Shown here: piece after piece, positions 4,284-33,207 of the stretch | Numbering within the stretch: position 1 is the first letter of the stretch | Layout: each line of letters begins with the position of its first letter | NCBI RefSeq assembly: GCF_003991155.1 | Contig: NZ_CP031294.1 | Reading direction: 5' to 3' (one strand) | Length of the DNA: 64,000 bases | DNA from: Escherichia coli | GTDB taxonomy: Bacteria; Pseudomonadota; Gammaproteobacteria; Enterobacterales; Enterobacteriaceae | The notes under the pieces: generated by a model | Database searches by the model: none | Seen by the model: the letters and a program-made list of their open reading frames with translations, nothing else | Told to the model about the DNA's origin: nothing | Program-made: the position numbers and the translations under genes

Positions 4284-5357
4284 TTACTCTTCTACTGACT
4301 CGGTGGGGTTGTCTTTTGCTCTTCGGTCGTCGATTGCCTGCAAAGCCGCAATGATTTCAGCCAGTGGCTTCTCCCGATACATCTCGACGATCTGCGATTT
4401 GGTGTATTTCTTGTCACCAATTTCAACTCGCCCGCTGGCGTTCTTTGGCAGGTATCCTTCTTCCAGCATGTACTCGACGAGCGATTCGATAACGTCGAGG
4501 CCACGAGTAGGATCGAAGTAGAATTTCCAGGTGCATTTGCCATACGGTGGTGCAACTTTGTTTTTGATGCATTCTGCGCCTACGTCCTGGCCGATCTTCT
4601 CTTTACCATCCTTCATCACCGATGCACCAAGACGGATACGTACAGAAGCGTAGAACTTCGGTGAATCTCCACCTGGCGACGTAGTAGGGTCGCCAAACAT
4701 TACACCGATTTTTGTGCGAACCTGATTCAAGAAGATGATGCAGGCGTTGTATTTGCGTGCCCACAAAGCCAGAGTAGGGAAGTTCGCACTCGTCGCACGA
4801 GCCAGTGCCGTATTGTCGTTCATGTTTAGCTGATCTTTGTCTTTGGCAGTGCCTTCAGCCATCTTTTCGAACTTCTCGGCTTTGGAGTTCGGAACCATAG
4901 ACGCAAGAGAGTCAGCCACGATACAGATTGGTGCTGATTCGGGGATAAGCTCTTCATCACGAACCAATTTAAGTATTGTGCCGATCAACTCTACAGAGTC
5001 TTCGAAGGTATCTGGCTGCTTGTATACCCACTGACCGTCATCCTCATCTGCGTTCAGGCCATTGGCGACAGCCAGGCCAACGTCAAAACTGTTTTCATGA
5101 TCGAGGAATACCGCCAGACCATCTTGTTTTTGAGCGGAGATCATCGCTGCTGTTGCAAGGAACGTTTTCCCTGCACTTGGAGGACCGAATACTTCGACGA
5201 TACGACCACAAGGGAAGCCGCCATCGTAACGACCAGAAATAGCTTTGTTTAACGGTGGAAAGCCTGTATCAATCCAATGAGTTACTTTCTGAATTTCGTC
5301 GTTGCTACCGATTTTCTTTTTCAGAGCAAGTGCCAGTGCGGATTTTCCTTTTGCCAT
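4284..5357 (-). CDS. RecA-family recombinase (RecA/UvsX-like)
   Basis: Walker A GPPSAGKT, Walker B-like ICIVADS, RecA-like core of 357 aa. Confidence 0.65.
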   Translation of the reverse strand: MAKGKSALALALKKKIGSNDEIQKVTHWIDTGFPPLNKAISGRYDGGFPCGRIVEVFGPPSAGKTFLATAAMISAQKQDGLAVFLDHENSFDVGLAVANGLNADEDDGQWVYKQPDTFEDSVELIGTILKLVRDEELIPESAPICIVADSLASMVPNSKAEKFEKMAEGTAKDKDQLNMNDNTALARATSANFPTLALWARKYNACIIFLNQVRTKIGVMFGDPTTSPGGDSPKFYASVRIRLGASVMKDGKEKIGQDVGAECIKNKVAPPYGKCTWKFYFDPTRGLDVIESLVEYMLEEGYLPKNASGRVEIGDKKYTKSQIVEMYREKPLAEIIAALQAIDDRRAKDNPTESVEE

Positions 5358-5632: not shown

Positions 5633-6621
5633 TACCTTTCGAATGGAAGAACAAACACTTCAAGGTCTTCAAGGAACGAACGGAAATTCAGCTCGTAGCA
5701 CAGTTGCTCGAATGCTTTCACGTCACGATTGCCTTTGATTGTTTCGATTTCGGTAGGCGGAAACTTCGTCTCAATCAGGTTCATTAGCGTGATGTTTCTC
5801 TTGAACGCTTCGAGCATTCGACAGCCTGTTTTCTCGTTGAAGGCATTCTTCGCTAGTTTGTTGAAGGCGGTCTTATGACGCCCTTTATTAACCACGATTG
5901 AGCCGTCGTTGATGCCGCGTACCATCGTTGCGACACTTCCCCATTCATGCAGCAGCTCTTTCGCACCGCCAGCACCAATGCCACCAACACCGCTAATGTT
6001 GTCCGAGTTATCGCCTTGTAATGCTTTTGCTTCCAAAAATGCGCGAGGCGTGGCGAATCCTGTCAGCTCCGCAAATTGCTCAAAATTAACCTGCTTGTTT
6101 TTGGCGTCTTCACGCAGGCTTACCCAGCTTACGTTTTCACGAACTAACTGAAGCCAGTCGCTATCGCCTGTTAACAGATAGATGTGTTCAACGGTTGGCT
6201 GCGGTGCCATGCGGGATACCAGCAGCCCGGCCAGATCATCCGCTTCTGCATCTTTTGCAATGAGTTGGGTAACTCCAAGCGCGGTCATCATTTTGAGGAT
6301 GTATGGCTTCTGGATAGCAAAGCCTTCCTTCATCTTTTTCATATCAGGATCGTCGTCGCGATTTGCTTTGTAGTCCGGGTAAAAGTCGCGACGCTTGTCA
6401 CTAAATCCATCCCAAAGAATCATAGGTCGGGCATGGAGGATGGAGGCATAACGACGGACGTTCTTAACAAAGCCGAAAGCAGCCTGTACTTCCATTTCGC
6501 CGTTGTGCAATTTGTCAGATTGTTGGTGGTAATAACCCAGGCTATTGCCATCTACGAAGAGATAATTCACCGGTACATTCCTTCCAAAAAGTAAGGCGTC
6601 CGTAGACGCCTTACTGGTCAC
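5626..6621 (-). CDS. Flap endonuclease / 5'-3' exonuclease (RNase H-like, FEN family)
   Basis: Acidic catalytic clusters (AKDAEADD, TGDSDWLQL) and an H3TH-like glycine-rich segment (NISGVGGIGAGGAKELL). Confidence 0.7.
   Translation of the reverse strand: MTSKASTDALLFGRNVPVNYLFVDGNSLGYYHQQSDKLHNGEMEVQAAFGFVKNVRRYASILHARPMILWDGFSDKRRDFYPDYKANRDDDPDMKKMKEGFAIQKPYILKMMTALGVTQLIAKDAEADDLAGLLVSRMAPQPTVEHIYLLTGDSDWLQLVRENVSWVSLREDAKNKQVNFEQFAELTGFATPRAFLEAKALQGDNSDNISGVGGIGAGGAKELLHEWGSVATMVRGINDGSIVVNKGRHKTAFNKLAKNAFNEKTGCRMLEAFKRNITLMNLIETKFPPTEIETIKGNRDVKAFEQLCYELNFRSFLEDLEVFVLPFERYC
6584..6612 (-). terminator. Rho-independent terminator (minus strand)
   Basis: Hairpin AAGGCGTC-CGTA-GACGCCTT with a minus-strand T-run (plus-strand CCAAAAAG). 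Confidence 0.5.
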
Positions 6622-6630
6622 GTAATGGGA

Positions 6631-7659
6631 TTACAGAGAGTCCAGCTCTCTCAGTAGGTCATCCAGACCTTCATCTTCCGTCGCAGATGCGGTTGCTACA
6701 GATGTCGCTGCGACTGCTTCAGACTCTTTGACTGATACGGCAACGGCAGCGGAACTTGCCTCTGGTTTAAATTCAGTTTCAACGGCACGGAGGATTTCTT
6801 CATCAACCAGACTGGTTGGTTCAGAAGCCGGTGTGTGCGCGGTTGCTACAGCCGTCGCTCCTTCTGTATGACCAGTGACAGAGCCAAATCCAGGCAGTGC
6901 CGCGGTCGATGTTTTCGCGGTAGAGGAAATTGCTGGTGCAGATGCAGAGGCAGTTGGTGCTGCGATGCCAATCAGACGACCCATAGTGCGAACTGTCGAG
7001 AGAAGACGAGTTTCATCAGCCTGATTTGCGTATGCGATCAGGTCATGCTGGGTATTCCAGAATTTATCTTCGATATCGCCTTTGTAGACTTTACGCTTAG
7101 GCGAGACGTCATATTTGGTATCGCGACCAGAGCCAGTACGTTTAATCAGGAATGCGTAGCCTTCCTCTTTGCTCAGTGGATTGCCGATATCATCAGCGAT
7201 GTCTTCGGTGATTGCTTTGCAGATATCATCGAATACAGTAGACGGCAGCTCGATTAACTGGCATTTCTCAGCATCTGCGAAATCCTCACGAGCAGAAAGA
7301 ATGCCGTTGACCAGGTAGCGAGGCGTGGCACGCATTTGACCGATGCGTTCTTCCATTGCTTTGTTACCCTTGTGACGAGCGCGACCTTCCATCACCATTT
7401 CGCATAGCTGACAAGCGCGACCGTGAGTATGTTGCTCACAAATATAAGCGTTGGTTGCTTCTTTACCTTCCTCGTTCTGATACTTAACGTAGTGCATACC
7501 GAAAGTCTGGAAGAACTTACCGTTTGGGTCGTCTTTATTCGGGAAGATGCGGATATAGTTGACGCCGTCTTTTAAGCGAGTCAGATCAACGTTGTTACCA
7601 CGTTTGGCGGCAATGTCTTCACGAGTTTTGTTAAGCAAATCAAGTAATGTCTTAGACAT
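6631..7659 (-). CDS. Putative ssDNA-binding protein (gp32-like)
   Basis: Cys/His cluster CEQHTHGRACQLC resembling a zinc-binding subdomain, Ala/Ser/Thr-rich linker and acidic C-terminal tail (EDEGLDDLLRELDSL); sits between nuclease and polymerase genes. Confidence 0.4.
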   Translation of the reverse strand: MSKTLLDLLNKTREDIAAKRGNNVDLTRLKDGVNYIRIFPNKDDPNGKFFQTFGMHYVKYQNEEGKEATNAYICEQHTHGRACQLCEMVMEGRARHKGNKAMEERIGQMRATPRYLVNGILSAREDFADAEKCQLIELPSTVFDDICKAITEDIADDIGNPLSKEEGYAFLIKRTGSGRDTKYDVSPKRKVYKGDIEDKFWNTQHDLIAYANQADETRLLSTVRTMGRLIGIAAPTASASAPAISSTAKTSTAALPGFGSVTGHTEGATAVATAHTPASEPTSLVDEEILRAVETEFKPEASSAAVAVSVKESEAVAATSVATASATEDEGLDDLLRELDSL

Positions 7660-7776
7660 GTGTTTCTCCTTGTTGTGATTTGGCCGATGGCGCTATGCGC
7701 GTTGGGCTTTCGTTCATTCGTGGCTCTTTCGAGCTGTTAAATGATAGATCAGTACTTACTTATTATCTATCAAAAA

Positions 7777-8208
7777 TCAACGGGGAGTAATAAAGCGTTC
7801 AGAGCCTAATCGCTCTAATTCAACGATGGCCATCTTTGACGCCTGAACGATCATGTCTCGGCGATGCGAAAAGGCGGCGACAGCATGTTTGTATATGTCT
7901 GCGATGTGCCGTGCTTCATCCAACTTCTGCCGTTTAGACAGATACTGTGGGTTTGTTTTAACCTTAGCGTCCAGTACAGATTCGTTGAACTTAATGCCAT
8001 TCATACTCAAGTTCTTACGCTCTGTGTCGTATAGCTTTGCTTCAACAGCTTCAAGGTTAAGTTTTGCTTCTGCGACACTTCTTTCTGCATGGGCGAGTTT
8101 TGAGCCATATTCCATCAACAGGCGGGGTTGTCTACGCCAGACTTCTTCCAGATTGTCTCGGTCAAACTCGAGATCGGACATGATTTTTTCGTATATATTG
8201 GTGCTCAT
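7777..8208 (-). CDS. Hypothetical protein (predicted coiled coil)
   Basis: 143-aa ORF with no recognisable catalytic motif. Confidence 0.4.
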   Translation of the reverse strand: MSTNIYEKIMSDLEFDRDNLEEVWRRQPRLLMEYGSKLAHAERSVAEAKLNLEAVEAKLYDTERKNLSMNGIKFNESVLDAKVKTNPQYLSKRQKLDEARHIADIYKHAVAAFSHRRDMIVQASKMAIVELERLGSERFITPR

Positions 8209-8452
8209 TTTGATAGATTCTCACTTATCATGATGTATTGATTATAGAGCTTAAATTAACGCTAATCCAAGATAGACCGTTATGCTATCTGCTCGAACAA
8301 CCATTTCTTAGGGCTTGTTAATTGCAGGAGTTTCTCCTATTGTGTTCGTGGATTTAATCGAAAGAAATATGGGTTTTGAAAAGGATAGAATCTTCATGTT
8401 TCCGCACAGCATTTATCATTAATTATTCAAATTAAAAGGAAATATTATCCTC

Positions 8453-9043
8453 ATGTTTGATATTTATAATTTATTAAAGCAAATAGCAGAGAACACGAAA
8501 CCTGACCATTCTGCTATTTGGATTGCTGTAATATCTTCAATATCAGCTATTGCAGGCGCTGCTATTGGTGCATATTTGTTATATCGAGGCACAAACGAAC
8601 AAATTAATTCTGCTGCTGCTATTGAAGATAAAAAATTAAAAGCAACTATAATTACCGCAGAAAGACTTCGTTGGCTTCAAGAGCTAAGGTCAAGAAGTAG
8701 TGAGTTTTATGCGAATCTCGATATGAATTACAACTTATTAAAACGACCGATAAATCCGCAGGCAATCCCGACATATCAACAAGCTGGGGACGAACTGGCG
8801 AAAATTGTAATGATTCAATGCAATCAGATAATTGTATTGCTTAATCCTAAAAAAACTCATCAGCAAACTATTTTTAATAAATGTAATGATGCACTTAAAT
8901 TTTTCATGGAATGCGTCGAAGAAAAAAATAATGGTAATCTGAACTTTGATGATTCCAAGTATGCGGAAATAAAAAACGATTACTTTAATGCTTTAACTGA
9001 AATAGGTATTGAAACTTGGAAGCAGATAAAAGAGTTAAGTTGA
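8453..9043 (+). CDS. AT-rich accessory gene: membrane-anchored protein of unknown function
   Basis: Plus-strand ORF inside a minus-strand block; visibly lower GC than flanks; hydrophobic helix at residues ~20-45; own downstream terminator. Confidence 0.5.
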   Translation: MFDIYNLLKQIAENTKPDHSAIWIAVISSISAIAGAAIGAYLLYRGTNEQINSAAAIEDKKLKATIITAERLRWLQELRSRSSEFYANLDMNYNLLKRPINPQAIPTYQQAGDELAKIVMIQCNQIIVLLNPKKTHQQTIFNKCNDALKFFMECVEEKNNGNLNFDDSKYAEIKNDYFNALTEIGIETWKQIKELS

Positions 9044-9104
9044 TGTCTTATTGGCGGAAGATAATTAATAACTATCACTACACGGAATCTGCAATTAATA
9101 AATG

Positions 9105-9133
9105 AAACCCGCGATTGGCGGGTTTTTTATTTA
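9105..9133 (+). terminator. Rho-independent terminator (plus strand)
   Basis: AAACCCGC-GATTG-GCGGGTTT hairpin followed by TTTTATTTAT. Confidence 0.6.
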
Positions 9134-9261
9134 TGCGACTTTCTTACCCAAGATGTTGGATAGAGTGACTCTGGTCTGGCGTTTCAGCCTGTACTATCTC
9201 ACATCGCCAATCTTGTTTACTTTCATAAACTCTTTGGCCTCCTTTATGGTGTTTTCTTTAT

Positions 9262-12200
9262 TCATTTGCTAATAGTCTCCGCTACCTCTGCCAGAATTGC
9301 TTCCAGCTTTTCGCCTTCCTCTGGGCGAAAGTACAAAATATTCGGGTTAAATCCGTAGAAAACAGTCACATCCAGCTCCGGCAGATACTCTTTGCGTCCA
9401 ACCAGGTCGGATGGTTTGATCTTGTTGTTGAAGAGCGACGTTGCCCGGCTGCCACACGTCAGCACATAGGTCGGACGCACCAGATTGATCTCTTCACGCA
9501 TAAAGTCGGTGAACTGGCCGATCTCGTCTTTGGTGTAGTCTTTTTCTTTGTCTTTAACCTTCTTGCAAACGCCTGTGACATAGAGATCGCCCATGCGTAA
9601 ATCTCCAGCCGTCAATAGCTTGGCCTTAAAATCGTCGTATCCGTTCTCCATAAAGTAACCGGTTCGAGCATCATTGCCGTTCGCATTGTCCAGAATGATC
9701 ATGATTTTCGGCTTAATACCAATGCTGGGGCGGATTAGTTCATCACCTAAGCCCATTTCAGCCGCCATCCGTGTCATGAGCACGTTAATCTCAGCCGAAC
9801 GTTTGGGGTTCATCTCAAACGGACGAGAGGCTTTAACTGCATCTATGACAAGGTTTCCCATCAATTCAGCCTGGTCGCGGAGGCGCTCTGGATCAGTTGC
9901 TGGCAGACTACCTGGCTCGATGGATGCAAACGCCCCTACTTTTTGCAGCGATTCGCGCACTCGACTATTACAGGCACGTTTCTCGACAGCTTCTTCGAAT
10001 TGCGCAAGTGACTCGAATTTGCCGCCAACCTTTTCTCGCGCTCTCATGATGGCCTGGCAGCCATTCTCAGAACACCCCTTCACAGCAGAGAAGGGCGCAT
10101 ACAGCACCTGGCTGCCATCTTCAAGCGTGCGGATCTCGATTCGGTTAGATGACACGTTAACGTCTGGTGGCAATACGCGAATACCATAGGTCAGCGCATC
10201 TTTAACCAGCCCCTGGTGTTTATCTTCGCCAAGAATAGTGAGAGCAGCAGCGAAAAACTCTGCGGGATAATGAGTTTTCAACCACATAGATTGATAACTG
10301 ATTAAGGAGTAAGCAACAGAGTGTGATTTGTTGAACTGGTAGGCACCATTCTTTTCGAATGCGGTCCAGATCTCCTTCGCTTTCATCTCTGATAGCCCTG
10401 GATGTGACGCTGTAACGCGTACTGCGTTTATAGGTAGTTTTGCACCGAACTCAAGTGCCTCTTCGACAGTTTTCAGAGTTCCGTCTTCGCATTTAAAATG
10501 TTCCGCACGGTGAATGCGCTGTGTAGTGCCATCTTCCAGCTCAACGTCGATCCAGCCAGCTTGAGCCTGAACGATGAACTTCTCACCCATGCTCTTCATT
10601 TTCTCCATGTCTTTTTTGCCGATCGCTTTACGAACGCCGTCAGCTTCAGCCATTGTGAAGCCGGCAAGCAATCGAGTCGCGTTCATCGTCTGTTCCTGAT
10701 AGAGAATCACGCCATTTGTTTCTGCGGTAAGTTCATCAAGAACGGGGTGTAATGATTCCGGCGTCATAAAGCCTTTGGCGACAGAAACATAATCATCCAA
10801 CATGCCTGACTGAATTGGCCCCGGCCGGAAGAGCGCAGTCGTAGCAACGACCGTTTTAAAGCTCATTGGCTCAATTCCACCACCTAAATCTTTAAGCAGC
10901 TTGCGCATTGGGCCTGATTCAAGCTGGAAAACACCTTGAGTGTACCCAGCAGCAAAACCATCCAGCACCTTGCGATCTTCAAGAGAAATGGCATCAAGAT
11001 TGATATCCTCACCTGTGTTCTCTTTAATGTAGCGTTTTGCACTATCGAGCAAATCGAGAGTCGCCAGGCCAAGTACGTCCAGCTTAATTAGGCCCATAGC
11101 CTCGCAGTAACGCTTGTCAAATGCGATACAACGCGCGTCACCACGTCGTTCAACCGGTGTTCGTTCTGTCAGAGGAACACCTGCTACGATCATCCCTGCC
11201 GCATGTCTACCATAGCCACGCATAAGGCTTTGTAACTTGCAGGCTGCATTGAATGCATCAGGATATTTTGTCGCGTATTTGTCGAGGCTTGCCAGTTGTT
11301 CGCGCAGCTCTTCCAATGGAAGGCTATCATCCTCGACGTTCTTCAGTTCTTTTGATACCGCCATATCTGCGGACTCCACACCATAAATACGAGCGGTGTC
11401 ACGTAGTGCAGAGGCCGCGCCCAGGTAGGTGAAGTTCGGAATGCCTGCAACGTAATCTTCGCCGTAGCGTTCATTCAGATACTCGATCACCTCATGGCGA
11501 CGTGCCTGGCTGAAGTCCAAGTCCGCATCTGGCAAGTCGAGACGCTCAGGGTTGATGAAACGTTCAAACAGAAGACCGTGACGGATAGGGTCGACGTTGG
11601 TTATGCCTATGCACCATGCCACCAAAGAGCCAGCGGAGGAACCACGACCAGGCCCGACAGGAATGCCAGTTTCACGGCTGTGATTCATCAGATCGCGTAC
11701 CATCAGGAAGTAACCACAAAATCCCAGGCGAGTAAGCGTGTCCATTTCGTACTTAAGTCGCTCAACATAAACCCTGTTCTCAGAAGCCGGTGGTGTGTAG
11801 CCAAACTCTTTTGTGGTAAGACGTTTACGCAGCCCAGCAACGGCCAGTTTCATCAGCGTTGCAGGCTCGTCGTCTGCCATCTTTGGCAGTGCTGGTGGCA
11901 ATTCATGCCAGCGCCATGTGCAGGCATCGATAATGGTATCCTGCGTTGTTGAGGCCATTGCGGCTGTTACCGGCACATCCATGCGAACGGAGAAGGCTTT
12001 CAGCGCCTCAAGGAGATGGCGGCGACCATTGACGGCGTTATCTCGCTGGTGGGGGATACGCAGACGATGCGGCTGGTCGATTTTGATGTTGTTCGTAACC
12101 ATGTGCGCAATGTCTTTAATGTCTGCATCGTCGATCGATTCGTAATAAGCGGGATAGAACGCTACTGGCTCTATTTTCAGTGCGCTGGCGACTTTCATCG

Positions 12201-12780
12201 CCCGGACGTTAATCTGGTCGTAGAATGGGGTAGGGTGCGGATAAACCACACTATAGAAGTTGTTTTTTCCACCCGCTGTAATCAGTGAGCTTATGATTTT
12301 TGCAAAATCGTTGCGTTGGTACACGCTACCGATGTCGGCAGTGAGCAGGATGATGTTGCCTTTGGCATATGTAGAAACCAACTGTTCGAGCGAGAGACGC
12401 GGTACAAAGTAGAACTGTTCTCGTGTGTTGGCCGCCGTCATTAGTTCGCAGATGTCTCGATATCCCTGCTCATTTTTAATTAGAGCGGTAAAGGAGTAGT
12501 TCCGCCCACGCTCTAATGATTCCATACATCCCATAGACTCTTTAGCAAGTTTAGCCCGGTGCTCGTATGTGGGATCATCAACAATGTTTAGTTTCACACC
12601 ACAAATAACCGCCATGTCGTCACCAGCGGCACGTTGTAGTGGAATAACACTCGCAATATTCATGCTATCTGCCGAAATTACAGCGGTGTAGCCAGCTTCT
12701 CTGGCAATCTTCACCGCGTTTTCTGCTTTTAGAGCCGACTCCCCAAGAGAGAAGTCAGTTCGAACCATCAGAGCCTTCAT
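9262..12780 (-). CDS. dnaE: DNA polymerase III alpha-type replicative polymerase (DnaE family) with N-terminal PHP domain
   Basis: 1172 aa; PHP-like N-terminus and the conserved DnaE core segment GFCGYFLMVRDLMNHSRETGIPVGPGRGSSAGSLVAWCIGITNVDPIRHGLLFERFINPERLDLPDADLDF. Confidence 0.85.
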   Translation of the reverse strand: MKALMVRTDFSLGESALKAENAVKIAREAGYTAVISADSMNIASVIPLQRAAGDDMAVICGVKLNIVDDPTYEHRAKLAKESMGCMESLERGRNYSFTALIKNEQGYRDICELMTAANTREQFYFVPRLSLEQLVSTYAKGNIILLTADIGSVYQRNDFAKIISSLITAGGKNNFYSVVYPHPTPFYDQINVRAMKVASALKIEPVAFYPAYYESIDDADIKDIAHMVTNNIKIDQPHRLRIPHQRDNAVNGRRHLLEALKAFSVRMDVPVTAAMASTTQDTIIDACTWRWHELPPALPKMADDEPATLMKLAVAGLRKRLTTKEFGYTPPASENRVYVERLKYEMDTLTRLGFCGYFLMVRDLMNHSRETGIPVGPGRGSSAGSLVAWCIGITNVDPIRHGLLFERFINPERLDLPDADLDFSQARRHEVIEYLNERYGEDYVAGIPNFTYLGAASALRDTARIYGVESADMAVSKELKNVEDDSLPLEELREQLASLDKYATKYPDAFNAACKLQSLMRGYGRHAAGMIVAGVPLTERTPVERRGDARCIAFDKRYCEAMGLIKLDVLGLATLDLLDSAKRYIKENTGEDINLDAISLEDRKVLDGFAAGYTQGVFQLESGPMRKLLKDLGGGIEPMSFKTVVATTALFRPGPIQSGMLDDYVSVAKGFMTPESLHPVLDELTAETNGVILYQEQTMNATRLLAGFTMAEADGVRKAIGKKDMEKMKSMGEKFIVQAQAGWIDVELEDGTTQRIHRAEHFKCEDGTLKTVEEALEFGAKLPINAVRVTASHPGLSEMKAKEIWTAFEKNGAYQFNKSHSVAYSLISYQSMWLKTHYPAEFFAAALTILGEDKHQGLVKDALTYGIRVLPPDVNVSSNRIEIRTLEDGSQVLYAPFSAVKGCSENGCQAIMRAREKVGGKFESLAQFEEAVEKRACNSRVRESLQKVGAFASIEPGSLPATDPERLRDQAELMGNLVIDAVKASRPFEMNPKRSAEINVLMTRMAAEMGLGDELIRPSIGIKPKIMIILDNANGNDARTGYFMENGYDDFKAKLLTAGDLRMGDLYVTGVCKKVKDKEKDYTKDEIGQFTDFMREEINLVRPTYVLTCGSRATSLFNNKIKPSDLVGRKEYLPELDVTVFYGFNPNILYFRPEEGEKLEAILAEVAETISK

Positions 12781-16962: not shown

Positions 16963-17349
16963 ATGTCTGATAACAAGATTGAATTTATAGAAAGTCGCTA
17001 CGCTGCTTTTATCGCAGGGTTGATTGAATCCTCACCTATGAGCCAGGCCCAGATAGCCAAAACAATTGGGTATAAAAACGCCAACAACCTTTCTTTAATT
17101 AAAAGCGGCAAAATTCCTTTGCCTATCGATAAGGTTCGTCCGCTGGCGCTGGCACTGGGCATTGAGCCAAGTCGTCTTATGATGATGGTGCTGGAAGAAC
17201 GCCAACCCGAACTCGCAGCATTTTTATACAAAGAAGGCACTGCTCCTCTTAACGAGGACGAAAAACAGGTTCTTGCTGCATATAACGAGCGATTCGGTAA
17301 AGAGAAAGGCGCATCACAAAAGGTTGTTGAGGCCATAAAGTCTCTATGA
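16963..17349 (+). CDS. HTH transcriptional regulator (XRE/Cro-like)
   Basis: Helix-turn-helix signature SQAQIAKTIGYKNANNLSLIKSGK; 128 aa; convergent with the recombinase gene. Confidence 0.6.
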   Translation: MSDNKIEFIESRYAAFIAGLIESSPMSQAQIAKTIGYKNANNLSLIKSGKIPLPIDKVRPLALALGIEPSRLMMMVLEERQPELAAFLYKEGTAPLNEDEKQVLAAYNERFGKEKGASQKVVEAIKSL

Positions 17350-18447
17350 AAAATTTACACGAATAAGCTCTGTTGATAGACGATCTCCCTTAAATTTGTG
17401 GTCAATTTCGTCTAAATCCGGTTGCTCTACGATTGATGCGATGTACGTCGAGAAACTTTCTAAGGCGTCTCGCATCTCGTCCATATAATCGTGCCGGTCG
17501 TAGACCCGATCTATCCCCTCAAGACTGTGGTTCATGATTTTACGTGATACCTCCTGGCTTATGCCTAATGCTGGGAAGTAACTACGCGCAGTACGGCGCA
17601 AATCTCGGGGTGTAAATGGCTCAAGCTCCATCAGTTCTGGTCGTTCCAGAATACGACGTAATGCCTGGGCTATTGCCACTTTAGACATAGGAAGGTCTTT
17701 CCCGATTTTTTTATTCGAAGGCACGAGCCACTGGCTGTCTTTACCATATTCGAACAACTCTTCAATACAAGTGCGCATTAATGAGCTTAAAGGCAGAGAA
17801 TGCTCACGGGCAGATTTGTTCCTCTTGCCTTGATTCCAAACCCCACGCTTAAGATTGAACTCACTTTTTTTAGCCCGCAGTACTTCGTCAGGTCGTCTTG
17901 CGGATACAAGACATAGCCTGGCCGCCCATTTTGTACCAGCGCACACATTGAAGTAGTCCCATATATTCCAGAACACCCATACCTCTGCGTCGGTCAGCTT
18001 CCGCTCGCGAGGTGTGGGCTTTGCGCCACCGGCAACTTTGTTAAGTGACATATCGTTTAACGGTGACACGTCTATCATCCCCTGGAAGGCGCACCAGCTA
18101 AGGAACTGCTTCATCAGAGAGAAAACGCGGCGGCCCATAACAATTTTGCCATCCAGTATTAGTGGGTTGACCAGTTGGTTCACCATGAACCTATTAATGT
18201 CACTTACTTTTACATCGGCAATGTGCGGCAAAACATGTATCAAAATACAATGAACAGCGATCTCTGGCCGACGTCTGGTTATCAGCAGAGATAAGCGAGT
18301 GAATAACATGAATGCGTCCGAGAATCTCATGTCATTGCTGACCTGGGAGATCATAACGGCCTGCATTTGAGATGCTCTTTCGAGATACTCTATCGCCTCT
18401 TTTGAGGTGTTCTCCGCAGCGCGTGCTCTGTCAAAGCTATTTTTCAT
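17344..18447 (-). CDS. Tyrosine site-specific recombinase (integrase/resolvase family)
   Basis: Catalytic-domain boxes: ARLCLVSARRPDEV (box I Arg), HSLPL, FTPRDLRRTARS, and HSLEGIDRVYDRHDY with the terminal Tyr. Confidence 0.7.
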   Translation of the reverse strand: MKNSFDRARAAENTSKEAIEYLERASQMQAVMISQVSNDMRFSDAFMLFTRLSLLITRRRPEIAVHCILIHVLPHIADVKVSDINRFMVNQLVNPLILDGKIVMGRRVFSLMKQFLSWCAFQGMIDVSPLNDMSLNKVAGGAKPTPRERKLTDAEVWVFWNIWDYFNVCAGTKWAARLCLVSARRPDEVLRAKKSEFNLKRGVWNQGKRNKSAREHSLPLSSLMRTCIEELFEYGKDSQWLVPSNKKIGKDLPMSKVAIAQALRRILERPELMELEPFTPRDLRRTARSYFPALGISQEVSRKIMNHSLEGIDRVYDRHDYMDEMRDALESFSTYIASIVEQPDLDEIDHKFKGDRLSTELIRVNFS

Positions 18448-18620: not shown

Positions 18621-19031
18621 TTAAGGGTTAGTGAGAGCTTGAAATGCGGCCGCGTAGGTAGCGATATCGACCATAATTTTTGGATCTTTCGCGTACTGAT
18701 GTGCGTTGTTAGGGAAGATTGCCAATAGGCTATACACATCTTGGAAATGTGCATGTTGACTGTAAACGAGTGCACGGTCGCTTGTGCAATTGAATCTGCT
18801 GCGGCTGCTGGTTCGTTCTTGCTTCGTGAACAAGAGATGAACGTGATAAACGCGGGAGGACACGATAGCACCAGGAGCCGTATACGGGCCATCTTTGCCG
18901 AATATGGCTGGGTACATGCCTTGTTTAAACGACTTGAAATCGTTGAGTAACGTAATCTCTAAGTCAGGCTTTATATCGAAGGTCGGCTTTAAAAATTGGG
19001 CGTAACTATCACTGTTCCATGTGATCTTCAT
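18621..19031 (-). CDS. YafO-like toxin domain protein (putative type II toxin)
   Basis: 136 aa; segments FGKDGPY, VYHVHL and LLAIFPNNAHQYAKDPKI resemble my recollection of E. coli YafO; unverified. Confidence 0.4.
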   Translation of the reverse strand: MKITWNSDSYAQFLKPTFDIKPDLEITLLNDFKSFKQGMYPAIFGKDGPYTAPGAIVSSRVYHVHLLFTKQERTSSRSRFNCTSDRALVYSQHAHFQDVYSLLAIFPNNAHQYAKDPKIMVDIATYAAAFQALTNP

Positions 19032-31503: not shown

Positions 31504-33207
31504 TTAATTATTAAGCAATCTGCTCACACGTAGTTTGTTAAGACTTGATCTAGAGGCCAGTTTCGTTAATGCACCTATTGCTTTATTCGTGATTTTTTGC
31601 TGTTCTTCTGTTAGTTCTTGCATACTTTTGAATCTGAGCAACCCCTTTCTCACTAAATCCAAAGCATCCTGATTGCGGGATAATATCCACTTTAAATAAT
31701 CATCTTCAGAGAAACTGTTAAGATATGCTATGTCACTATGATTAAATTTGCCTTCAATTATTTTGTATAAAACATTCTCTAAATTAGTCTCTTCAGGCTT
31801 CTTATCCATCAATTTTTTTTGAATTAGCAGACCTAACGTTTCGTTACCAAATATCTCTACATACAAATTCCGAAAAGCAGTATAAGCATCATCTTGGCTA
31901 ACAAAGGCATCTGCATATGCCTCTATATAACTATCACAATCAATCTCCAATCTATTTAAGATATCAATCAAGCCTATGAAGTGAGCAACAGGTATGTGTG
32001 AAAGATTGTCGTTAATTACACATTTTATCTTAGAAATAAACTCAGATTCATTGTCCTTGAATGAGTCACTAAAAATATCCCAAACATTGTTAACCTCACA
32101 TAAAGCCTTGTGTTCTTTATATTGTTTATTTTTTTCTTCTATTATACCTCGAATATTGCTTTCAGTAGAAAGATAACCATTCTTGAGATAAAAATCTATG
32201 TCATCATCGAAAGCAATTTCCGCTCGTTCATAAATAATATCAAGACTATTAATAAATGAATATACAGAATCATCCTTTTTATCATCTAACATGTAATCAA
32301 ATACATGTATGTTTTTAATTGATTCTTTAAACAAGGCATAATCAACACCTGGAACACCAGAATAGTAAACCACTGAAAACAGAACCAATCTATTGATAAA
32401 ACTTTCTCTAACCTTATCCTCTGCCAAGCTTAGCTCATTCCTAAGATTAACCAGAGATGTTTTTATTTTATTTAATATACGGATATTTTTAATGCCTAAG
32501 TCATTTGCTAAGACTTTTAACAAAAGAAAATCAGAATCAGTTTCATAAAAAACTTTACGTAAGTTCTTCTCAGGCGTAGGATCGTATTTTATTTCGACAT
32601 CAATTACTTTTTCTCTGTACTCTAAAAACTGTTTTTTTGCAGTTTCATCATGTAAATTATCTTCATTTAAAATTAGAACAACTTTGCAACCTTTTCTTCT
32701 TGCTAATTCATCAATTACCCCCATAATTTCTTTAACTTCTAGCGAATTACCTTTTCTTTCAACATCATCAATACAAACCAAATAATTATTAACAAATTTA
32801 TACTCAAGAGATGACAGCAGGTTATCTGTTTTGAACCCAAAAAAATCGTTCTTTCCGAAATGTATTAAAAATTTTGACAAGGAGTTGTATTTCAACCATC
32901 CCCAAAACCCATTTCTATAACGAATCATAGTTCGATCCGTTTCAGATAAAATTAGTTCTTTATATTTCTTTTCATTAATTGGTGTGGCACAATGATAAAG
33001 AGTTTTTTTAATATCACCAATAGAGTTAACCCCAAACAAAGAAACATACGAATATGCATTAAAATCTAATCCTTCAGAATGCTTAGTATAAAAACTATTC
33101 CAATAATGAGTTTTACCAACGCCCCAATCTCCTTTTATGACGGCAACCCGATGATCTGAAACTAGAAAATTTTTTAGAAATGATTCTATCGATTCCATTA
33201 GTATCAA
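31504..33207 (-). CDS. AT-rich accessory gene: P-loop NTPase, KAP-family-like
   Basis: Walker A GDWGVGKTH near the N-terminus, Walker B LVCIDDVER; 567 aa; markedly lower GC than neighbours. Confidence 0.5.
   Translation of the reverse strand: MILMESIESFLKNFLVSDHRVAVIKGDWGVGKTHYWNSFYTKHSEGLDFNAYSYVSLFGVNSIGDIKKTLYHCATPINEKKYKELILSETDRTMIRYRNGFWGWLKYNSLSKFLIHFGKNDFFGFKTDNLLSSLEYKFVNNYLVCIDDVERKGNSLEVKEIMGVIDELARRKGCKVVLILNEDNLHDETAKKQFLEYREKVIDVEIKYDPTPEKNLRKVFYETDSDFLLLKVLANDLGIKNIRILNKIKTSLVNLRNELSLAEDKVRESFINRLVLFSVVYYSGVPGVDYALFKESIKNIHVFDYMLDDKKDDSVYSFINSLDIIYERAEIAFDDDIDFYLKNGYLSTESNIRGIIEEKNKQYKEHKALCEVNNVWDIFSDSFKDNESEFISKIKCVINDNLSHIPVAHFIGLIDILNRLEIDCDSYIEAYADAFVSQDDAYTAFRNLYVEIFGNETLGLLIQKKLMDKKPEETNLENVLYKIIEGKFNHSDIAYLNSFSEDDYLKWILSRNQDALDLVRKGLLRFKSMQELTEEQQKITNKAIGALTKLASRSSLNKLRVSRLLNN

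Follow-up and report, generated by a model that had tools for sequence, protein, structure and literature searches.

A membrane-protein gene carried as mobile cargo in a hotspot of SSU5/pHCM2-type phage-plasmids, with a possible role in protecting the carrier cell

Morons, as the Hendrix laboratory defined them, are independent accessory transcription units of temperate phage genomes that some collinear relatives have and others lack, deviate in composition from the genome around them, have their own promoter and terminator and are expressed from the repressed prophage. HK97 gp15, P22 SieA and T4 Imm are small accessory membrane proteins of temperate phages that are expressed from prophages and act at the inner membrane. 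Among experimentally validated integron defence cassettes, about a third have transmembrane helices, and one integron defence protein, Deva, appears to block genome injection, to which escape mutants pointed (10.1101/2024.07.02.601719). Phage-plasmids of the SSU5/pHCM2 type are common among clinical Enterobacteriaceae. The plasmid pHCM2, which is reportedly carried by roughly a fifth of S. Typhi isolates, is still termed cryptic (10.1101/2025.09.12.675607). Here we analyse a gene for a 196-amino-acid (aa) protein that lies between a uvsY-like gene and dnaE in a 64,000-nucleotide stretch of Escherichia coli DNA (contig NZ_CP031294.1; hereafter the window). The slot between these two genes is a cargo hotspot, and the 196-aa gene is horizontally acquired, self-contained mobile cargo under purifying selection (omega 0.2). 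In kind, it is an uncharacterised member of a familiar class, that of accessory membrane-protein genes in temperate-element hotspots. We consider it possible, at somewhat less than an even chance, that its product acts at the inner membrane to protect the carrier cell, and hence the phage-plasmid, against other phages or mobile DNA entering the cell.

Judged from its sequence, the window is part of an SSU5/pHCM2-type phage-plasmid. Over the stretch tested, its sequence and its coordinates are those of the E. coli plasmid NZ_OW849379.1 (isolate 162 plasmid P2, 110,667 bp), a few other near-identical plasmids also match it, and its flanks are similar to phage-plasmids of the SSU5 group, namely PhiR41_1, CMS-2020a, Cyrano, SSU5 and the S. 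Typhi CT18 plasmid pHCM2. When positions 7600-9700 were compared by BLAST, homology to PhiR41_1 ended at 8246 and resumed at 9270, and homology to SSU5 ended at 8208 and resumed at 9098. In PhiR41_1 a gap of ~125 bp lies between the uvsY-like gene and dnaE, which represents an empty slot; the slot is likewise empty in pSTEC409_1 and pMTY18530-3, and the segment 8247-9097 is also missing from the otherwise collinear CMS-2020a. Cyrano, SSU5, pRM9131-1 and pAMPD1 carry in this slot a plus-strand gene pair encoding a 74-78-aa protein (phrog_5923) and a 187-192-aa helix-turn-helix (HTH) protein (phrog_2620), which are annotated in Cyrano as HicA and HicB, respectively. A near-consensus promoter (TTGACA-N17-TAGAAT; positions 5700-5760 of the Cyrano locus, L008) lies upstream of the pair in Cyrano, and in pRM9131-1 and pAMPD1 the pair is followed by a cspG/cspE-like cold-shock gene (L029 3687-5080; L031 1752-3139). 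The HicA-like/HTH cargo and the 196-aa gene occupy the identical slot on the same strand, are both accessory and are mutually exclusive in the elements examined, but the former is an unrelated two-gene module of the toxin-antitoxin type with a recognisable promoter (in Cyrano), whereas the latter is a single membrane-protein gene.

Of the 5,426 complete E. coli genomes in the data set, 216 contain the uvsY-like backbone gene, in every case on a plasmid. The 196-aa cassette is present in only 15 of the 216 genomes with the element, again always on a plasmid and never on a chromosome. All 45 PLSDB plasmids that carry the 196-aa gene are phage-plasmid-like and non-mobilizable, and the elements in which the gene fills the slot are pHCM2-type plasmids from Salmonella, Klebsiella, Citrobacter and Enterobacter and a group of clonal plasmids from E. 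coli. This distribution bears on the possibility that the protein serves the element's own phage life cycle, for example by anchoring replication or recombination to the membrane or by timing lysis in the manner of an i-spanin or antiholin. The gene does lie between dnaE and a block of uvsY-like, gp32-like, exonuclease and RecA-like genes, and an N-terminal transmembrane segment followed by a long helical domain is superficially i-spanin-like. However, 201 of the 216 related elements in E. coli lack it, as do the plaque-forming phages SSU5, Cyrano and PhiR41_1, its orientation is opposite and its GC content foreign, its homologues are also known from settings other than phages (an integron-type cassette, an integrative and conjugative element (ICE) and a chromosomal island), and its surroundings include neither lysis genes nor a lipoprotein partner, so that we regard a life-cycle role as quite improbable. 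An i-spanin or lysis-cassette protein in particular was rejected, given that the neighbours are recombination and replication genes and that homologues are found outside phages.

The earlier note on this DNA had described the gene as an AT-rich moron, encoded between the gene at 7777-8208 and dnaE in the orientation opposite to its neighbours and lower in GC content. The 196-aa plus-strand open reading frame (ORF) is present exactly as described there. Every annotated neighbour between 4284 and 16711 is encoded by the minus strand, and the block around the slot consists of replication and recombination genes (RecA-like, 5'-3' exonuclease, gp32-like single-stranded DNA-binding protein, uvsY-like, dnaE, AAA ATPase and CobT-like). 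The GC content is 33.0% for the ORF and 32.4% for the 244 bp upstream of it (8209-8452), compared with 46.0% for the window as a whole; 591-nt windows that are equally AT-rich make up the lowest 3.6% of all such windows and are grouped in three islands. As a structural claim, the moron layout is thus borne out by presence and absence among relatives, by orientation and by composition. With respect to the definition given above, the gene is patchily distributed among collinear relatives and deviant in composition; a terminator-like hairpin is present but belongs to the shared backbone, and the best promoter-like sites on the plus strand score 8/12.

Relative to the pHCM2 orthologue (84% amino-acid identity), the ratio of non-synonymous to synonymous substitution rates (dN/dS) of the 196-aa gene is 0.20 overall, and its values range from 0.08 to 0.35. 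A chance ORF is ruled out by this ratio together with the existence of a homologue family of conserved length. A decaying, hitch-hiking ORF might be suspected given that a deletion has left no more than a remnant of the DUF7740 gene next to it and that no promoter was identified for the 196-aa gene. The data on selection and conservation effectively refute such decay, however: the frame is intact in 45/45 PLSDB plasmids, dN/dS is low (0.08-0.35), an invariant motif and the protein length are kept across distant bacteria and metagenomes, and the fold is predicted with confidence. We therefore give decay next to no chance.

Divergence from pHCM2 is mosaic along the cassette. Synonymous divergence (dS) of the backbone genes is 0.9-2.1, whereas the leader and codons 1-115 of the 196-aa gene (window 8240-8800) are 92-98% identical to pHCM2 with a dS of 0.13, and codons 116-196 (window 8810-9130) have a dS of 1.83 and a dN/dS of 0.08. 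The simplest reading of this pattern is that the lineages of E. coli and Salmonella recently exchanged the 5' part of the cassette; alternatively, the low 5' divergence might reflect constraint at the nucleotide level.

The product of the gene is predicted to be a membrane-anchored four-helix bundle. A motif was defined from an alignment of 20 sequences, and an alignment of 67 diverse family members was used for conservation, topology and as the input for an AlphaFold2 (AF2) model. This model has a predicted local distance difference test score (pLDDT) of 93.4 and comprises helices at residues 2-15, 19-97, 106-129, 135-159 and 167-195. The single N-terminal transmembrane helix that the earlier note anticipated is recovered as a hydrophobic segment at residues 21-43 (mean Kyte-Doolittle value 2.0), which in the model is the start of the single long helix 19-97. 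In the 67 sequences R71 of the signature motif is invariant and W74 and R79 are conserved in at least 90%; other conserved residues are L7, L8, I11, E13 and T15 in the N-terminal part and Y86, D90, M91, R98, Q109, D113, N131, Q137, F178, G185 and W189 further on. Because the seven consecutive invariant residues ERLRWLQ span all faces of helix 1 in the model, they suggest a functional surface rather than core packing alone. An AF2 prediction that addressed self-association with a tandem fusion (two copies joined by a 30-residue linker, with a paired alignment) gave a pLDDT of 70.7, a predicted template-modelling score of 0.64 and values below 50 for the transmembrane segments, and its output carries no contact information.

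The family is rare and its length is strictly conserved at ~195 aa. When 1.84 billion representatives were scanned exhaustively with HMMER, 94 relatives were found at E <= 0.001, another search returned 45 homologue clusters, and a profile search of a set of 5.8 billion proteins brought up no remote annotated relatives in addition. Among PHROGs the protein matches only phrog_24982, which has no function assigned, and searches of PDB sequences with the protein and with the family profile gave nothing significant. The homology search for which the earlier note had called uncovered no housekeeping relative in PHROGs, PADLOC, NCBIfam or Pfam.

We infer an N-out/C-in topology, with ~20 conserved residues outside, one transmembrane helix and a bundle of ~150 residues in the cytoplasm, because of a charge bias across the family, signal-peptide-like extensions in some members and multi-transmembrane fusions. 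Across the 67 members, the 15 residues before the transmembrane helix contain on average 1.07 K+R and 2.15 D+E, the 15 residues after it contain 2.88 K+R, and positive charge is higher on the C-terminal side in 56/67 members. Six longer homologues have signal-peptide-like N termini, followed by 50-60 residues with cysteines and a QCGxNxI motif and then by the transmembrane helix, and three multi-transmembrane fusions also fit a cytoplasmic C-terminal bundle.

Members of 233-264 aa form a longer subfamily (P0049, P0057, P0058, P0068, P0071, P0084 and P0069), mostly with a signal-peptide-like N terminus. All of them have an extra segment of 50-60 residues with (Q/D/L)CGxNxIxQ, and all but one have a further cysteine upstream of it and before the transmembrane helix. 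From its sequence, this segment may be a periplasmic sensing add-on.

The homologues are found in neighbourhoods that are typical of variable defence or mobilome islands. One lies in a Vibrio fluvialis ICE with a TrwC relaxase and a coupling protein and with ToxN within 8 kb, another directly after glmS in a Pseudidiomarina island, and a third in a prophage-like region that contains a PDC-M62 pair (Septu-like ATPase and nuclease) 4.5 kb from the homologue as well as HipA_2/DUF3037. In a primase/AlpA satellite-like island the homologue directly follows a fragment of a type IIG restriction-modification gene. Metagenome contigs place it directly after GmrSD_N and HEPN_RiboL-PSP and before SNF2/DUF1156, directly before a DpnII-MboI-like nuclease, or near HicAB and a WYL regulator. 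One further homologue (P0022) is part of a co-oriented array of small cassettes that are separated by attC-like imperfect palindromes and interrupted by an insertion sequence. These palindromes (L025 4003-4073 and 4598-4668; also 5330-5349) are ~70 nt long, start with ..TAACAAG and end with ..GTTRG; the insertion sequence is downstream, and no integrase is encoded on the contig. On these sequence features, the array looks like a chromosomal integron cassette array. No conserved partner gene was found, and the neighbours differ in every homologue context examined. The upstream genes of 206, 217 and 207 aa at three homologous loci were considered as partner candidates and rejected, as their translations are mutually unrelated and none matches PADLOC.

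A lysogenic-conversion or superinfection-exclusion role for the 196-aa protein is plausible because of its membrane location and because of the company that the family keeps, which includes restriction, HEPN, Septu-like and ToxN genes and the integron-type cassette. If the protein is protective, the cytoplasmic bundle with its invariant ERLRWLQ surface would be a sensing or oligomerisation module, and the transmembrane helix together with the N-terminal helix would be the effector. Such an effector might permeabilise the membrane, which would amount to abortive infection, or it might obstruct genome entry, which would amount to superinfection exclusion. We slightly favour the abortive, sensor-based mechanism over a pure entry block, because the protein is mostly cytoplasmic and because the family is kept across very different hosts, unlike narrow phage-specific exclusion proteins. 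A bolder proposition, which we hold to be doubtful, is that the protein is the founding member of an unrecognised single-gene family directed against phages and other mobile genetic elements, anchored in the inner membrane by one transmembrane helix and consisting otherwise of a cytoplasmic four-helix bundle with ERLRWLQ, that would travel as a self-sufficient unit among phage-plasmid hotspots, integron cassettes, ICEs and satellite-like islands and would give pHCM2 a defence function.

Several observations weigh against a protective function or against the topology set out above. The protein matched 0 families of PADLOC-DB v2 (PADLOC-2023) at E <= 1 and no family in Pfam or NCBIfam, where only sub-threshold noise was returned (YfbR-like, DUF5820, Gins23 and Lepto_8Cys). 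It had no tblastn match in a phage collection of 50,697 records, and the best match in a fold search of viral structures (BFVD) was not significant (E 0.17). A literature search yielded no paper mentioning the accessions of the protein and no expression data, and neither the integron study nor the pHCM2 survey cited here deals with it. That survey reported pHCM2-type elements to be devoid of recognised defence systems, which would fit either novelty or the lack of any defence role (10.1101/2025.09.12.675607). No plus-strand sigma-70-like site upstream of the gene is better than the 8/12 sites mentioned above. Defence-type neighbours occur in ~6/9 independent contexts, a proportion that was judged by eye. 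At the level of topology, the charge bias around the transmembrane helix of the window protein itself is neutral (N flank +2/-2, C flank +1/-2), and in P0040 (269 aa, from a 1,273-bp metagenome contig) a DUF4062 (PF13271) N-terminal domain is fused to the transmembrane-bundle unit, which conflicts with a cytoplasmic C terminus; P0040 could be a real variant or an artefact of assembly or gene calling.

A non-defence accessory membrane protein is an alternative in which the bundle, as a sensor-like module or one that binds a partner, would tether or regulate some cytoplasmic or periplasmic component, as in envelope or stress adaptation or the membrane sequestration of a regulator. Such a protein would be of use to the host or the plasmid in certain niches and would have no action on phages. 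The conserved polar bundle residues R71, R79, Q109, D113 and Q137 could form a binding site, and the other cargo of the hotspot includes a gene with a stress function, that for the cold-shock protein. Nevertheless, the protein has neither an output domain nor a conserved partner gene, its identity to four-helix sensor domains is 3-17% over a generic fold, and known four-helix-bundle (4HB) sensors have their bundle in the periplasm between two transmembrane helices, whereas the 196-aa protein has one such helix and a bundle that is probably cytoplasmic. Moreover, the neighbourhoods of the family are of the mobile or defence type and not metabolic or regulatory. An accessory role of this kind is therefore unlikely in our view. 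A sensor of the two-component type was rejected on the grounds of the single transmembrane helix and the missing output domain.

The region upstream of the gene, which the earlier note had described as an AT-rich leader of ~240 bp, is indeed AT-rich over 244 bp; it is not a private leader, however, but a divergent intergenic region shared with the minus-strand uvsY-like gene. It is 92-97% identical to pHCM2, contains small ORFs of 27-35 codons at 8238-8422, shows no excess of RNA folding (z = +0.95) and matches no Rfam family. The start of the uvsY-like gene is preceded at ~30 nt by a perfect minus-strand TATAAT, which coincides precisely with the point (8246) at which homology to the empty site of PhiR41_1 ends. 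From this arrangement, the cargo appears to have been inserted just upstream of the uvsY-like -10 element, whereby the -35 region would have been replaced.

A toxin or addiction function, in which the protein would stabilise the phage-plasmid by doing harm on over-production or on loss of the element, would be analogous to that of the HicA-like/HTH pair, which occupies the same hotspot in the four elements named above (Cyrano, SSU5, pRM9131-1 and pAMPD1). Small membrane proteins are often toxins, and a weak or absent promoter would suit tight repression. Yet no cognate antitoxin ORF accompanies the gene (the other ORFs at 8209-9133 have only 20-56 codons and are unsupported), no structured or known antisense RNA was found, a length of 196 aa is far above the size of type I toxins, and the homologues are lone genes with unrelated neighbours. 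We therefore judge a toxin to be improbable. A type II toxin-antitoxin module was likewise rejected, as the cassette has no adjacent co-oriented conserved partner ORF. Protection of the carrier cell is the function that we prefer for the gene, whose features and surroundings are listed in Table 1.

Table 1. Location of the 196-aa gene, its encoded segments and adjoining features in the window
Feature	Position	Strand	Details
Foreign cargo segment (leader, coding sequence, 3' untranslated region)	8247-9097	+	From BLAST of 7600-9700; 33.1% GC
Coding sequence of 196-aa bitopic membrane protein	8453-9043	+	ATG start; RefSeq WP_000459728.1 (hypothetical protein); full-length match to phrog_24982
Shine-Dalgarno-like AAGGA (putative)	8436-8440	+	12 nt before ATG; read from sequence
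Short N-terminal amphipathic helix, residues 2-15	8456-8497	+	Conserved LLxQIAENT; AF2; probably periplasmic
Transmembrane helix, residues 21-43	8513-8581	+	Hydrophobic in 67/67 members
Four-helix bundle, residues ~62-195	8636-9037	+	Probably cytoplasmic
Signature motif ERLRWLQ(E/D)(L/I)R, residues 70-79	8660-8689	+	Invariant in 20 sequences
AT-rich divergent intergenic region	8209-8452	.	Lies 5' of the plus-strand gene and also upstream of the uvsY-like gene on the minus strand
Perfect TATAAT, candidate -10 of uvsY-like operon	8246-8241	-	TTGGAT-18-TATAAT, 9/12; relaxed promoter scan
G+C-rich hairpin with T-run (A-run on the other side), putative intrinsic terminator at convergent junction	9104-9135	.
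DUF7740 pseudogene remnant	9131-9265	-	From pHCM2 alignment and translations; Pfam DUF7740 on intact orthologue
uvsY-like gene	7777-8208	-	143 aa; annotated in Cyrano as UvsY-like mediator
dnaE	9262-12780	-

Downstream of the gene, the earlier note had reported a strong, dedicated hairpin terminator. The hairpin is strong: its stem (9104-9126) has 9 pairs, 5 of them G-C, is followed by a T-run and scores as a terminator, and its folding energy of -16.6 kcal/mol (z = -4.4) was reached by 0/200 shuffles. The word 'dedicated' was an overstatement, as the hairpin is a backbone element common to SSU5 and pHCM2. It stands where the sequence in common with SSU5 begins (homology from 9098) and faces the convergent minus-strand transcript, and a hairpin also marks this convergent junction in both SSU5 and pHCM2, that of pHCM2 with a stem that differs in sequence and still pairs perfectly. 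For these reasons the hairpin is probably a shared, bidirectional terminator of the backbone rather than one private to the cargo. A Trp_leader candidate of Rfam at 9035-9131 (+), which spans the 3' untranslated region and the hairpin and scores below threshold (27.8 bits, gathering score 41; E 0.0055), was rejected as a chance resemblance to a hairpin followed by a U-run. Beyond the hairpin, an in-frame deletion of 309 bp and a CAG-to-TAG stop have reduced the DUF7740 gene to an ORF of 23 codons, the ATG of which overlaps the dnaE stop; intact DUF7740 genes follow dnaE in pHCM2 and SSU5 (147 and 141 aa, respectively).

Within the same minus-strand block, the RecA-like gene (window 4284-5357) is 1,074 bp long both here and in pHCM2. 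In PhiR41_1 (L007 319-2658), Cyrano (L008 319-2658) and pMTY18530-3 (L030) it is 2,340 bp long and is labelled in RefSeq as a LAGLIDADG homing endonuclease. Judging by these lengths and labels, the difference looks like an insertion polymorphism of an intein or homing endonuclease.

The window has two other AT-rich islands. The second island (31504-33198, minus strand, ~29% GC) encodes a 563-aa P-loop NTPase that matches the candidate defence family PDC-S49 of PADLOC (E 7e-22) and is probably another defence-type cargo gene. The third (20164-21072, plus strand, ~30% GC) holds a hypothetical gene for 302 aa without a PADLOC match, which adjoins genes for a glutaredoxin and for a toxin of the YafO family (18621-19031), the latter with a 201-aa partner upstream of it; a gene for a site-specific integrase (17344-18447) is near.

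The hotspot between the uvsY-like gene and dnaE, which may be empty or contain a toxin-antitoxin-like pair, a cold-shock gene or the 196-aa membrane protein, is a place in which to seek the traits that these phage-plasmids confer. If the 196-aa protein is protective, it would enlarge the defence repertoire by a very small, portable module of one gene, provide a first role for a family that is unannotated in databases, and possibly for the DUF4760-like fold, and help to account for the persistence of pHCM2-like elements. If it is inert, the gene is an ordinary hypothetical moron.

Among described systems, the 196-aa protein differs from the sensor domains of the 4HB_MCP, TorS, NarX-NarQ and QseE kind. 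These are periplasmic, are bracketed by two transmembrane helices and have a cytoplasmic output in the form of a kinase or methyl-accepting domain, whereas the 196-aa protein ends after helix 4 and thus offers no such output. DUF4760 (PF15956) proteins, which are also uncharacterised, share with it an N-terminal transmembrane helix, a helical bundle and a length of about 160-240 aa, and DUF4760-annotated models are its best Foldseek matches outside the family in AFDB50 (E 4.3e-6, 1.6e-4 and 1.3e-3; template-modelling scores 0.6-0.77). Identity in these structural alignments is only 15-20%, however, and the PF15956 profile matched neither the protein nor any of the 67 members at E <= 0.1 in hmmscan; the structural resemblance may be an analogy. 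Single-gene defence cassettes of integrons such as Deva and BrcWGS21 are short stand-alone genes with transmembrane helices that reside in mobile cassettes and confer phage resistance (10.1101/2024.07.02.601719), and the P0022 homologue, which sits in an integron-type array, parallels them in its setting. With known superinfection-exclusion families, such as SieA, SieB, Imm, Sp, gp15 and Sie2009, the protein has no homology in the searches made (no Pfam SieB or other match, no functional PHROG and no match to a viral structure). It does have in common with the prophage exclusion proteins HK97 gp15, P22 SieA and T4 Imm a moron-like layout, with its own orientation and a deviant GC content, and it differs from these families in that most of its mass is probably cytoplasmic and in that its relatives are spread over very different bacteria and non-phage elements.

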